Source: Massilia sp. | Lineage (GTDB): Bacteria > Pseudomonadota > Gammaproteobacteria > Burkholderiales > Burkholderiaceae_D | Direction of reading: 5' to 3' | NCBI GenBank assembly: GCA_045810465.1 | Contig: JBJMVW010000221.1 | Span: 23,197 to 87,196 of the forward strand | Length of the DNA: 64,000 bases | Made by a program: the position numbers and the translations under genes | Shown: positions 22,334 through 35,121 of the stretch, piece after piece | How the letters are laid out: the number at the start of each line of letters is the position of its first letter | Numbering within the stretch: the stretch's first letter is position 1 | The notes under the pieces: model-generated | Database searches by the model: none | Told to the model about the DNA's origin: nothing | The model's input: only the letters and a program-made list of their open reading frames with translations

Positions 22334-22419
22334 TTGCAAAACAATTCGACTCTGACCCTACTTTTACGGCGAGTAGTTGCAAAACAATTCGACTCTGACC
22401 CTACTTTTAACGGCGGTAG
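22334..22419. repeat. Two tandem 43-bp units containing a 26-bp dispersed repeat (TTGCAAAACAATTCGACTCTGACCCT)
   Basis: Identical 26-mers at 22334-22359 and 22377-22402, each followed by ACTTTTA(A)CGGCG(A/G)GTAG. The same core recurs 4 times at 26754-26909. Confidence 0.85.
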
Positions 22420-22937
22420 GGATTGTCCGGGCGGCTGTCATAGCGGTTCGGGACGCCGTCGCCATCGCGGTCGCGGTCGTAGCGGTTCGGCACGCCGTCG
22501 CGGTCCTCGTCCCAGCGGCCTTCGTGGCGGCGCTCGTAGCGGTCGGGGATGCCGTCGCGGTCGCGATCGTGGCCGCGCCACTCCATGCGGTCCGGGATGC
22601 CGTCGCGGTCGCGGTCACGGCCGCCGTATGCGCTCCAGCGGGCCGGCTCCATGTACCAGCCGCCGTCGCGCTGGTACCAGGCCGGGGCCGAATACACATA
22701 GCCCGGGCGCTCGGCCACCCAGTAGCCGCCTACCCAGTCATGGCGGTGGCCGCGCCACTCCCAGTGGCCGGGAGCCCACACGTAGCCGCGGCGCGGCGCC
22801 GGCACCCGCTCGTACATGGGCGCTGGCGGGGCCGAGCCGACCACCACGCTGAGGTGGGTTTGCGCCATCGACGGCAGCGGGGCATAGGCGGCCGCGCCAA
22901 GCGCGATCAGGGTTGCAAAGGTGAGGGTGCGTTTCAT
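22407..22937 (-). CDS. Secreted protein with WxxGxW-type repeats and Asp/Arg-rich TSP3-like (DxDxDG) calcium-binding repeats
   Basis: Start MKRTLTFATLIALGAAAYA (signal peptide). YVWAPGHWEWRGHRHDWVGGYWV repeats; DRDRDGIPDR / DRDRDGDGVPNRYD repeats. Confidence 0.6.
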   Translation of the reverse strand: MKRTLTFATLIALGAAAYAPLPSMAQTHLSVVVGSAPPAPMYERVPAPRRGYVWAPGHWEWRGHRHDWVGGYWVAERPGYVYSAPAWYQRDGGWYMEPARWSAYGGRDRDRDGIPDRMEWRGHDRDRDGIPDRYERRHEGRWDEDRDGVPNRYDRDRDGDGVPNRYDSRPDNPYRR

Positions 22938-23127
22938 GTCAGGTCTCCAGATCCAAAACGGATGATTCAATATATCAATCCACGCCGCGGATGGGGCGAA
23001 TTGATGCACCTGCTTACAACTGAAACAGATGTGTTTGAAACCGTAACGGCTGGAGCGACAGGACCGCAATGGCAAGCACGGACGCGCGGGCAGCCGGTGG
23101 CTGGCGTGCGTCCGCGTGCGGTGAAGG

Positions 23128-32969: not shown

Positions 32970-32976
32970 TCCGGTC

Positions 32977-35121
32977 ATGCAAACGGCCATCGACAAGATC
33001 CGCGAATTGCGCGCGCTGCACGAGGACGGCCTGTTGAGCCGCCACGAGTTCGACCTGCGCAAGGACGCGATCCTCGATGCCGCCTGCGCCACGCCGGTGG
33101 AGCTGCCGCCGGCGCATGAAGCGGCCGCCGGGCGCCCCGGCACCGAGATCGGCCTGATGGCTGGCCAGGAGCTTGGGCCGCCCGCGCGCCGCTATCGCCT
33201 CGAGCGCCTGATTGCGTGCGGCAGCGTGGCCCAGGTGTGGCAGGCCACCGACCTCGCGACCCAGGCCGAGCTGGGCCACAGCGCGCAGGTGGCGCTGAAG
33301 ATCCTGGCCCCGCAACTGACCCGGAACGCGAACTACGCGCGCCTGCTGGTCGAGGAAGCGGCTCGCGCGCGGCGGCTCGCGCACGAACACATCGTGCGGG
33401 TGTACGACTGGGCGCGGGACCCTGCCACCGCGAGCTACTTCATCATCATGGAATGGCTGGAGGGCGCCGACCTCGACACCCTGCTGGCGCGCGATGGCCC
33501 GCCCGGCGTGGCGCGCGCGCTGGAACTGCTCGCGCCGGTCGCCGCGGCGCTCGACTATGCGTGGGACAAGCACCGGCTGGTCCACCGCGACATCAAACCG
33601 GCCAATGTGTTCGTGACCAAAAAGGGCGAAGTCAAGCTGCTCGATTTCGGCATCGCGGCGCGTGCACGCGCGACGGCCGGCGGGTCGGTGCTGGAAGCGC
33701 CGGCCAGCTCGGGGACCGCGGGCTACCGCGCGCCGGAGGCCGGTGTGCCGGGGCGGCGCCCGGAGCCAACGCTCGATGTCTACGCGGTCGCGGTGATGTT
33801 TTACCAGATGGTGAGCACAGGCCTGCCGTTCGGGCCTGCGCGCCAGGCTGGGGATACCCCGGCCAGGCCCGACTGCCTTGGCGAGCATCAGTGGCGCACG
33901 CTGCAGGCCGGTTTTGCGCCGGATCCCGCGGCGCGCCCGGCAACCGTGGGCGAACTGCTGGCGCGCCTGCGCGACAGCGCCAGCAAAGTAGTGGCGCAGC
34001 CAGCAATCGAAGCACCGAAGGCCGCGCCCGCCAAGGCTGAACCCCAGGGGACGCAGGTGCTATTGGCGCGCCAGCGACGCGAGCGCGAGAAGCAGGAGCG
34101 CGCAGCCGCCGAATCGGCTCGCCTCAAACGCAAGGAAGCGCTGCGCCAGCAGCTGCTCGCGCGGCGCGCCGAGGACGCCGAAAAAGCGAGGCTGTCCAAA
34201 GAGGAGGCGCGGCGCAAGGCACTGCAGGCGCGTGCGGCCGGCGCGTACCTGGTGCAGCAACAGCGCGAGCGCATGCTACCCGCTGGCCGCGACGAAGCCG
34301 GTTCGCAACCCGTCCTGCGCGATCGCTTCATCGACGGTGGCGGCGCGGGTCCTGCACTGGTGCCGCTCCCCGCCGGACGATTTCAAATGGGCTCACCCGA
34401 GCATGAGCACGACATCGCGCTGCAGGCCGGCGCGCGCAAGCACTGGCTGGCGCGCGAGCTGCCGCGGCATTGGGTCGACATCGGGCGCGCTTTTGCGCTG
34501 GGCCGCTATCCGGTCACCGTCGGGGAGTGGCGCGAGTTCGCGGCCGCCACCGGTTGGCATGGGAAGGGCGCGGTTGACTGGCAGTGCCCCGGCTTTGCGC
34601 AGGCCGACGCGCACCCGGTGGTCGGCATCACATGGCACGACGCGCAGCAGTACCTGCGCTGGCTGTCGGCGCACACCGGCCAGGCCTACCGCCTGCCGAG
34701 CGAAGCGGAGTGGGAATACGCCTGCCGCGCCGGCACCAAAACCGCCTTCAGCTGCGGCGACACCATCAGCACCGAGCTCGCCAATTACGACGGCACCTTT
34801 AGCTACAACGCCGGGCCGCGCGGCGTGTTCCGCCAAGGGACGACAGCGGTGGGCAGTTTTGCGCCCAATCCGTGGGGCCTGTTCGACATGCACGGCAACG
34901 TGTGGGAATGGGTGCAGGACACGGTCCATGACAACTACGACGGCGCCCCGCTCGACGGCAGCGCGTGGGAGGAGGGCGGCGACCAGGCCCGCCGCATCCT
35001 GCGCGGCGGCTCCTGGCTGTACCACCCGCGCTACCTGCGCTCGGCGCTGCGCAACGGGTTCTCGGCCGCCCTGTGCAATGACATCGTCGGCTTCCGGGTG
35101 GCGAGGGACCTGCCGCGATAG
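32977..35121 (+). CDS. SHOCT domain / Ser-Thr protein kinase / FGE-sulfatase (SUMF1-like) domain fusion
   Basis: N-terminal IDKIRELRALHEDGLLSRHEFDLRKDAIL (SHOCT). Kinase motifs HRDIKPANVFV, DFGIA, GTAGYRAPE. C-terminal RLPSEAEWEYACRAGTKT...GNVWEWVQD...RGGSW (FGE-sulfatase). Confidence 0.8.
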   Translation: MQTAIDKIRELRALHEDGLLSRHEFDLRKDAILDAACATPVELPPAHEAAAGRPGTEIGLMAGQELGPPARRYRLERLIACGSVAQVWQATDLATQAELGHSAQVALKILAPQLTRNANYARLLVEEAARARRLAHEHIVRVYDWARDPATASYFIIMEWLEGADLDTLLARDGPPGVARALELLAPVAAALDYAWDKHRLVHRDIKPANVFVTKKGEVKLLDFGIAARARATAGGSVLEAPASSGTAGYRAPEAGVPGRRPEPTLDVYAVAVMFYQMVSTGLPFGPARQAGDTPARPDCLGEHQWRTLQAGFAPDPAARPATVGELLARLRDSASKVVAQPAIEAPKAAPAKAEPQGTQVLLARQRREREKQERAAAESARLKRKEALRQQLLARRAEDAEKARLSKEEARRKALQARAAGAYLVQQQRERMLPAGRDEAGSQPVLRDRFIDGGGAGPALVPLPAGRFQMGSPEHEHDIALQAGARKHWLARELPRHWVDIGRAFALGRYPVTVGEWREFAAATGWHGKGAVDWQCPGFAQADAHPVVGITWHDAQQYLRWLSAHTGQAYRLPSEAEWEYACRAGTKTAFSCGDTISTELANYDGTFSYNAGPRGVFRQGTTAVGSFAPNPWGLFDMHGNVWEWVQDTVHDNYDGAPLDGSAWEEGGDQARRILRGGSWLYHPRYLRSALRNGFSAALCNDIVGFRVARDLPR

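Follow-up and report, generated by a model that had tools for sequence, protein, structure and literature searches.

The Massilia sp. contig JBJMVW010000221.1 (GenBank assembly GCA_045810465.1) carries, within the 64,000-nucleotide stretch analyzed here and called the window throughout, a cluster of seven plus-strand genes, G1 to G7 (23539-35121; Table 1), that encode a predicted giant penicillin-binding protein (PBP; G1), three family-less proteins (G2, G3, and G4), a protein with a predicted Lon-protease-like fold (G5), an SPFH/Band_7 protein (G6), and a serine/threonine kinase (STK) fused to an FGE-sulfatase domain (G7). We propose, at a probability of roughly 40%, that G2 to G7 together with the convergently encoded FHA-domain protein FHA487 form an undescribed phospho-regulated, SPFH-scaffolded Lon-type protease signaling module that would act at the inner membrane face in envelope surveillance. 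This proposal builds on sequence comparisons, a structure model of G5, and analogy to systems with similar parts; the modules that the cluster joins are of known kinds (SPFH-protease pairs and Hanks-kinase/FHA signaling), and no description of the cluster was found in the literature. Its core is G3-G4-G5-G6, with G2 added in most lineages, and both the STK-FGE kinase and the FHA protein truly belong to the system, recurring with this core.

Conservation of the cluster and its core

The core was recognized in contigs with G5 homologs at 25% to 50% identity and a GC content of 0.59 to 0.64, in which the genes were confirmed with hidden Markov models (HMMs) of the Oxalobacteraceae orthologs, with HMM matches present also for G3. 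The lineage represented by L090 and L175 encodes a PP2C-like-motif protein (recognized by eye), a Vps4_C-bearing AAA ATPase, and a coiled-coil protein, all divergent from G4-G5-G6, and past G6 it carries a kinase of STK-TM-PEGA-FGE architecture (with TM for transmembrane; G7 HMM E = 1.8e-136), a convergent FHA protein, and another AAA gene. The FHA protein of L175 (E = 1.3e-7) matches FHA487 in length class and N-terminal cysteine cluster, with a BLASTP E value of 0.007 between the two. At ca. 25% identity in G4, L175 indeed keeps the same layout as Massilia, i.e., G6 followed by the STK-FGE gene and a convergent FHA gene, which bears out the view of a preliminary description of this region that phospho-signaling is part of the system. 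In L092, G2 to G6 similarly precede a gene for an FHA protein (Pfam E = 2.8e-5) and the beginning of a gene for a kinase, and L087/L088 carry a TIR_2 protein (1007 aa, 196-3219 in L087), a G1-like gene, and G2 to G5, with G6 and an STK-FGE gene 7 kb further on.

Other distant loci combine the core with different companions. The giant PBP, an Amidase_2 gene, and G2 to G6 are followed in L083 by a PhdYeFM/PIN toxin-antitoxin pair and a restriction-modification S subunit (13772-16091), L090 is also flanked by a PIN toxin, and L089 has an AAA gene, G2 to G5, and G6. L085 shows G2 to G5 only, beside a PF00144 beta-lactamase-family gene, and L174 has G3, a 700-aa G4-G5 fusion, a short G6, and an AAA gene, with caspase-domain (Peptidase_C14) proteins on both flanks (390-1970 and 14940-16304). 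A PP2C-like protein (by eye) and AAA ATPases are sometimes further partners of the core in distant lineages, where such AAA, coiled-coil, or PP2C-like companions lie at 1340-4054 in L090, 8511-11392 in L175, 6668-7309 and 13465-14736 in L174, and 278-1417 in L089. An assignment of the coiled-coil proteins of L090, L174, and L175 to PspA/ESCRT-III (Snf7) found no support in Pfam.

The PBP is lineage-restricted, being found among the distant loci only in L083 and L087/L088, and the 10 kb around the core are free of SEDS genes in every distant locus. Since the distant core consists of G3 to G6 (plus G2), with the PBP in some lineages only and SEDS never next to it, peptidoglycan synthesis or remodeling is not supported as the core function, contrary to what the preliminary description had suggested.

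Among close relatives, the cluster is strikingly uniform. The best 80 of 153 GTDB species matches, returned as loci, all belong to Oxalobacteraceae (Massilia, Telluria, Duganella, Pseudoduganella, Rugamonas, and Janthinobacterium) or unclassified relatives. In tblastn searches with the window proteins, G1 to G7 are all collinear and co-oriented in 73 of 82 loci, which supports the earlier view of this gene set as one conserved unit; eight of the nine loci short of the full set are cut by contig ends, and median identities across the 82 loci are 56% to 66%. In at least six genera, the place of the cluster on the chromosome is fixed and syntenic. A convergent FHA487 gene is found in 61 of the 82 loci, and the first gene of the SEDS operon described below is reached within the 10-kb flank in 22. 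An unrelated M28 peptidase gene (39 loci) and a Metallophos gene (28 loci) are equally syntenic, so that gene order in close relatives is weak evidence of shared function.

Proteins encoded by the cluster

An AlphaFold2 model of G5 (pLDDT 92.3, pTM 0.90) predicts a Lon-protease fold that comes without an ATPase module. By sequence, G5 matches nothing in Pfam, NCBIfam, PADLOC, or PHROGs, shows no AAA match, and finds only the Lon domain of A. fulgidus in the PDB. S240 and K286, 46 residues apart, are invariant in 45 diverse sequences, and a weak HMMER alignment sets K286 on the lysine of the GGVTQK motif of A. fulgidus Lon. The secondary-structure pattern of the model and a sequence repeat suggest two tandem Lon-like copies of which the N-terminal half would be degenerate, and the Ser240/Lys286 pair is retained in the C-terminal half only. 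RadA, ComM, BrxL (from BREX), and CalpL (from type III CRISPR) are among the structural neighbors of G5. The family is small, with 119 representatives at E ≤ 1e-3 among 1.84 billion cluster representatives and 153 relatives in GTDB contigs covering one genome for each of 185,579 species.

G4 appears to be the obligate partner of G5, because both are fused in some lineages; residues 24-173 of G4 are homologous to the N-termini of three G4-G5 fusions of ca. 700 aa (hhalign probability 96%, E = 2.3e-9). We also considered G4 as a second SPFH protein, but its match to the G6 profile is not significant (hhalign E = 0.13, probability 0.45%).

G6 combines an N-terminal zinc ribbon (CxxC...CxxC), an SPFH/Band_7 domain (PF01145; 29.0 bits against a cut-off of 23.6, residues 165-268 of the translated open reading frame), and a coiled coil of ca. 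400 aa, and its orthologs also carry Band_7 matches. Massilia G6 lacks the C-terminal second zinc ribbon (CxxGH...FCxxCG) of most orthologs, which are 740-770 aa long, and no TM helix or hydrophobic segment was detected in G6 or three of its orthologs. SHOCT-like segments have been predicted to be inner-leaflet anchors, and proteins combining Band-7 and Zn-ribbon domains partner with PspA (PMC11237479).

G7 is composed of a SHOCT-like N-terminus, a Hanks-type serine/threonine kinase domain (Pfam Pkinase, E = 1e-31) with all of the VALK, HRD, DFG, and APE motifs, a charged coiled coil, and an FGE-sulfatase-type domain (E = 4e-57). The preliminary description had named PBP, SPFH, kinase, FGE, and SHOCT domains in this region, of which Pfam confirms the first four, with SHOCT reaching 17.6 bits and thus remaining below its cut-off of 27. 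G7 has no TM helix, and among G1 to G7 only G1 has one. The FGE segment GGSWLYHPRYLRS of G7 is cysteine-free at what we take to be the site where formylglycine-generating enzymes carry their catalytic cysteine pair, which argues for a binding rather than a catalytic role of this domain. In the L175 ortholog (4762-7560), a TM helix (residues 392-410) and a PEGA domain precede the FGE part, which places this part outside the cytoplasm; Oxalobacteraceae kinases have the charged coiled coil in place of this TM-PEGA portion and lack a TM helix. The STK-FGE architecture as such has already been catalogued as the "Proteo1" family (10.1101/2025.01.12.632604), and FGS domains are described as ligand-binding domains typical of conflict systems (PMC7159879).

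G2, G3, and G4 match nothing in Pfam, NCBIfam, PADLOC, PHROGs, or the PDB, with a sub-significant E value of 0.007 as the best PADLOC result for G2. The true start of G2 is at 27018, as seen from an N-terminal MRLPGTRYQE that is invariant in 21 orthologs. G2 is a cytosolic, all-helical protein in which this invariant N-terminus is followed by an acidic variable linker and a C-terminal helix-turn-helix-like pair. Its fold has no relative in the PDB (best Foldseek E = 0.2, with sigma factors only among the non-significant matches). The C-terminal LPTLRKRRDxAIxRL had suggested a sigma or ECF-like factor, but this is unsupported (hhalign probability of 1.3% against E. coli RpoE), and neither a PDB profile search nor Pfam scans of each family member gave a sigma-factor or any other match. 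G3 has a helical N-terminus, a variable linker, and a beta-rich C-terminus. Right after this linker, which is of highly variable length, lies the near-invariant motif AAND..W.GS.GMLRAA (residues ca. 70-87), a candidate recognition or cleavage site for the neighboring protease.

G1 is a bitopic protein with a single TM helix at residues 53-71, an arginine-rich cytoplasmic tail, and a Pfam Transpeptidase domain (PF00905, E = 1.8e-18, residues 803-1066). From its sequence, it is a class B PBP transpeptidase with all three motifs, SxxK (STFK), SxN (SLN), and KTG, which are kept in 77 orthologs. The G1 profile matches class B PBPs in the PDB, including MrdA and the PBP2 of the solved RodA-PBP2 complex; a profile was needed, as the single sequence gave no PDB match. 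The match begins around residue 606, leaving ca. 550 aa of periplasmic sequence after the TM helix without a match, and the Pfam scan found no PBP dimer/pedestal domain (PF03717) in G1. Divergent from G1 lies G0, whose secreted product contains a WXXGXW repeat as well as thrombospondin-type-3-like (Ca-binding-like) motifs rich in Asp; G0 is kept in 64 of the 82 loci. The product of this conserved neighbor of G1 might act together with the giant PBP in the periplasm, though the membership of G0 in the system is uncertain.

Surroundings of the cluster in Massilia

The G+C content is 0.69 to 0.76 across the region, and raw lists of open reading frames are full of shadow frames; genes were called from third-position GC (GC3) frame analysis, open reading frame lists, and inspection of start codons. 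The GC3 frames and open reading frame lists confirm the earlier statement that the large genes are all co-oriented on the plus strand, and give seven of them. G2 to G5 are tightly packed, with gaps of 11 nt (G2-G3) and 3 nt (G3-G4) and a 4-nt overlap of G4 and G5, and 7 nt separate G6 from G7. G7 is followed on the plus strand by a GNAT gene, OsmC, and Pirin, and after these by FHA487, an MFS transporter, a second GNAT gene, and then the minus-strand STK/SEDS operon (Table 1).

Table 1. Genes and repeats in and around the G1-G7 cluster of the Massilia window.
Feature	Position	Strand	Description
Repeat pair	22326..22409	+	two direct copies of a 41-nt REP/MITE-like repeat, core AACAATTCGACTCTGACCC
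G0	22407..22940	-	Pfam WXXGXW
G1	23539..26754	+	1071 aa, Pfam Transpeptidase
Repeat quartet	26747..26916		four copies of the AACAATTCGACTCTGACCC-core repeat in two inverted pairs, G1-G2 spacer
G2	27018..28295	+	425 aa, family-less
G3	28307..28864	+	185 aa, family-less
G4	28868..29917	+	349 aa, family-less
G5	29914..30918	+	334 aa, predicted Lon-protease-like fold
G6	31032..32969	+	645 aa, SPFH/Band_7
G7	32977..35121	+	Pkinase and FGE-sulfatase
FHA487	37521..38984	-	FHA domain at residues 282-359, Pfam 24 bits (cut-off 20.7); N-terminal Cys/His cluster
U516	41419..42969	-	516 aa, cytosolic, family-less; last gene of the STK/SEDS operon
SEDS780	42947..45289	-	780 aa, FtsW/RodA-family domain at residues 473-755
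STK329	45286..46275	-	stand-alone Hanks-type kinase, first gene of the operon

The preliminary description had placed an STK, an FHA, and a SEDS gene in a second operon. STK and SEDS genes are indeed found there, on the minus strand, but the only Pfam-supported FHA domain is that of FHA487, a separate gene convergent on G1-G7; FHA-like stretches seen by eye in SEDS780 and U516 have no Pfam match at E ≤ 0.1. SEDS780 has an N-terminal extension of 300 aa. The operon is convergent with G1-G7, with 16 kb between the PBP and SEDS genes, and U516, SEDS780, and STK329 are tied to G1-G7 by adjacency only. The genes of the window show no PASTA or PP2C match in Pfam, and the NCBIfam PknB_PASTA match spans the kinase domain only.

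Seen from the SEDS protein, a survey of metagenome contigs gave 41 loci of at least 12 kb, all of which have U516 and SEDS780, 39 STK329, and 34 a glycine-zipper gene. FHA487 comes next in 33 of these 41 and G7 is reached in 20, but five to six have other neighbors and neither FHA487 nor G7 nearby. Because loci without the MFS and GNAT genes have FHA487 immediately after U516 in the same orientation, the ancestral layout, as read from gene order, is one of two convergent operons separated by a spot of variable insertions. The expectation that both operons co-occur in synteny thus holds for most Oxalobacteraceae loci, where they are adjacent, but not for distant cores, near which no SEDS gene is found. 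A calcineurin-like phosphoesterase gene (Metallophos, 47051-48244, plus strand) sits next to both the glycine-zipper gene and STK329, and 28 of 80 SEDS-side loci show it in synteny; its product could be a PPP-type serine/threonine phosphatase for the kinases or a mere neighbor.

A dispersed repeat of 41-48 nt occurs in six copies in the window, against none expected, and only at the two places listed in Table 1. The preliminary description was right about these repeats but had taken them to bound the region on the left, whereas they also lie in the G1-G2 spacer and so bracket G0 and G1 rather than the whole of G1-G7. The inverted pairs in this spacer are hairpin-capable; orthologous spacers are ca. 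70-100 nt long and repeat-free. As the repeat is missing from all 173 related loci, it is a strain-level REP/MITE-like insertion, and a role as system boundary or mobile-element signature was rejected on the same grounds; the repeat pair left of G0 is probably outside the system. A 29-nt inverted repeat (9822-9850 and 9906-9934, 93% complementary, 55 nt apart) belongs to another sequence family than the AACAATTCGACTCTGACCC repeat. Further downstream, G+C falls from ca. 0.70 to 0.60-0.62 over ca. 6 kb (56000-62000 of the window), up to a tRNA-Leu(taa) gene (61565-61651, minus strand), and this stretch may be an integrated island.

Functional reading and comparison with known systems

In the proposed signaling module, G6 would assemble into an SPFH ring or cage on the membrane and hold or gate the G4-G5 protease, by analogy with other SPFH proteins that work with FtsH or NfeD proteases. 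The G7 kinase, possibly tethered by its SHOCT-like segment, would be switched by a ligand on the FGE domain, and FHA487 would read the resulting phospho-threonine marks. With this step, G5 would be licensed to cut a partner, the likeliest candidates being G3 (in or close to GMLRAA) and G2, and cleaved G2 could alter transcription through its C-terminal helix-turn-helix. The input signal would come from the cell envelope, because the extracytoplasmic modules differ by lineage, and the sensor would accordingly be the giant PBP G1 in Oxalobacteraceae and the TM-PEGA-FGE ectodomain on the kinase in L175; the neighboring STK/SEDS/FHA operon may be a co-regulated cell-wall arm confined to Oxalobacteraceae. 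More far-reaching, and in our eyes rather doubtful, is the view that the core, STK-FGE, and FHA make up a new class of signaling or immunity system, in which threonine phosphorylation, in place of a nucleotide second messenger, would license an SPFH-caged, ATP-independent protease of two Lon-like halves to cleave G3 or G2 and so elicit growth arrest or a change in transcription when the envelope is breached or a phage enters; G2, G3, and G4 would then define three new protein families, with G2 adopting a fold without PDB relative.

Several observations weigh against the proposed module. Membrane association of G6 is assumed from its family, since the protein has no TM segment, and the cytosolic location of the FGE domain in Oxalobacteraceae G7 is a poor fit with envelope sensing. 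Not every Lon-like domain close to G5 (RadA, ComM, and BrxL among them) is a protease, several core-bearing lineages lack the PBP, and the toxin-antitoxin, restriction-modification S subunit, TIR, and caspase neighbors of distant loci fit a defense island better than an envelope-stress regulon. The cluster could also be an anti-phage or abortive-infection system in which the FGE domain or the SPFH/Lon module detects an invader or membrane damage and phosphorylation activates the Lon-like protease against a host or phage target. Besides the neighbors in L083, L090 (PIN toxin), L087, and L174, this idea draws on the structural proximity of G5 to BrxL and CalpL, on the rare and patchy distribution of its family, on FGS domains being typical of conflict systems (PMC7159879), and on matches of the kinases to the PD-T4-6 and MAD6 models. 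However, these kinase matches cover the kinase fold only, no PADLOC model matches G1 to G6, and classical suicide effectors such as a nuclease, a pore-former, or an NADase are absent from the cluster. A fixed syntenic site in at least six Oxalobacteraceae genera, intact in 73 of 82 loci, would also be unusual for a defense island, and we consider a defense function less likely than not, though a serious alternative. In PADLOC-DB v2, G1 and G3 to G6 indeed have no match and the kinases match the generic PD-T4-6, MAD6, and MkoA kinase models, in line with the earlier remark that nothing here is a canonical housekeeping gene of peptidoglycan synthesis; the gene set fits no canonical housekeeping or defense model in Pfam, NCBIfam, PADLOC, or PHROGs. 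A phage origin was likewise considered and rejected, given that G2 to G6, FHA487, and U516 have no PHROGs match.

The preliminary description had instead favored an accessory peptidoglycan machine built from the class B PBP G1 and SEDS780, organized by the SPFH protein and regulated by serine/threonine phosphorylation. The three transpeptidase motifs kept in 77 G1 orthologs and the profile match to class B PBPs, including one complexed with RodA, speak for it, as do the recurrent adjacency of a SEDS gene with its own kinase in the convergent operon, the Amidase_2 gene inside the L083 cluster, and the PF00144 gene next to that of L085; clusters of STK, FHA, SEDS, and class B PBP genes are well known in Actinobacteria. 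Yet no PBP is in view around the core in L085, L090/L175, or L174, no SEDS gene lies within 10 kb in distant loci, and five to six SEDS operons have neither FHA487 nor G7 nearby. G2 to G7 moreover encode cytosolic proteins, none of them a glycosyltransferase, a hydrolase, or a lipid II enzyme, and synteny in close relatives reaches unrelated genes, all of which makes this machine an unlikely core function, although it may describe the Oxalobacteraceae-specific arm of the system. That the genes form no system at all and are merely kept in order by the close kinship of the genomes could be argued from the M28 peptidase, Metallophos, OsmC, and Pirin genes, which are also syntenic in many loci, and from the single family that accounts for every named-organism genome match (best 80 of 153). 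But the order of G3, G4, G5, and G6 is kept at 25% to 50% identity in loci with entirely different surroundings and a GC content of 0.59 to 0.64, against ca. 0.70 to 0.76 in the window, G4 and G5 are fused in some lineages, and genes overlap or sit 3 to 11 nt apart, so that this explanation is largely refuted and hardly credible.

The proposed module shares features with several known systems. Control of proteases by rings or cages of SPFH proteins has been described (PMC13086221, PMC12624060), and the known SPFH-protease pairs, i.e., HflK/C with FtsH and stomatin PH1511 with the long NfeD PH1510, likewise have a gene for an SPFH protein with a long coiled coil beside a protease gene. In contrast to these, the cluster protease is of predicted Lon fold, ATPase-less, and neither FtsH nor a ClpP-type NfeD (Pfam finds no NfeD match in any cluster protein), G6 is TM-free and has a zinc ribbon, and the three orphan proteins and the kinase/FHA layer are additional. 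A stand-alone Lon-fold protease that serves as a signal-triggered switch is known from type III CRISPR, where the SAVED-Lon protease CalpL is joined by the anti-sigma factor CalpT and the ECF-like sigma factor CalpS, and cleavage of a partner frees a transcription factor (10.1101/2024.05.08.593097). Unlike CalpL, G5 has no SAVED domain and its N-terminal half resembles another Lon-like domain in degenerate form; no cas genes are seen around the cluster, G2 has no significant match to sigma factors, and G3 has no match at all. The trigger would likely be phosphorylation rather than cyclic oligoadenylate.

The threonine phosphorylation pathway of the P. aeruginosa H1 type VI secretion system (PpkA, PppA, Fha1, and TagR), which responds to envelope perturbation, combines a Hanks kinase, an FHA protein, a PP2C phosphatase, and an FGE-sulfatase component. 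A Hanks kinase, an FHA protein, and an FGE-sulfatase domain are all found in the Massilia window, and this trio recurs in L175; the FGE-sulfatase protein of the former pathway is given as TagR1 (PMC13411936). Differences are that FGE is fused to the kinase in the cluster, that the window has no Pfam-supported PP2C, and that the output appears to be a protease/SPFH module, and no type VI secretion family is among the Pfam matches at 15.5-56 kb of the window or in related loci. The actinobacterial fhaA-fhaB-pstP-rodA-pbpA-pknA-pknB cluster and the RodA-PBP2 pair similarly bring SEDS, class B PBP, Hanks kinases, and FHA proteins into one neighborhood, but the Massilia PBP and SEDS genes lie in separate convergent operons, PASTA and PP2C are absent, the PBP has an unmatched insertion of 550 aa, and both PBP and SEDS are missing from distant cores (the PBP from some only).

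Band-7/SPFH proteins with zinc ribbons have also been linked to membrane-stress machinery (PMC11237479, PMC8581546, PMC10936438), and B. subtilis PspA-YdjG-YdjH-YdjI and archaeal ESCRT-III/Vps4 loci share this combination with G6. Distant cores resemble these in having classical AAA ATPases (one with a Vps4_C match) and short coiled-coil proteins, but the latter give no PspA/Snf7 match in Pfam, and the Massilia cluster has no AAA or PspA gene. The Lon-like domains of RadA/Sms, ComM, and BrxL, finally, are appended to ATPase or helicase modules with DNA-related roles, whereas G5 stands alone, seems to consist of two Lon-like halves, keeps a conserved Ser-Lys pair, and has other partners.

Seven genes, three of them family-less and one without a structural relative in the PDB, are thus found together in at least 73 genomes from six or more soil and rhizosphere genera, and such conservation, which includes a reduced form at a quarter of sequence identity, implies an important, unstudied function. 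If G5 is phospho-regulated, the cluster would be a counterpart to CalpL-type protease signaling with another trigger, and it would offer an experimental way into what bacterial SPFH cages and kinase-linked FGE domains sense. With its giant PBP and SEDS operon, the Oxalobacteraceae version is a candidate link of this signaling to beta-lactam and cell-wall stress.

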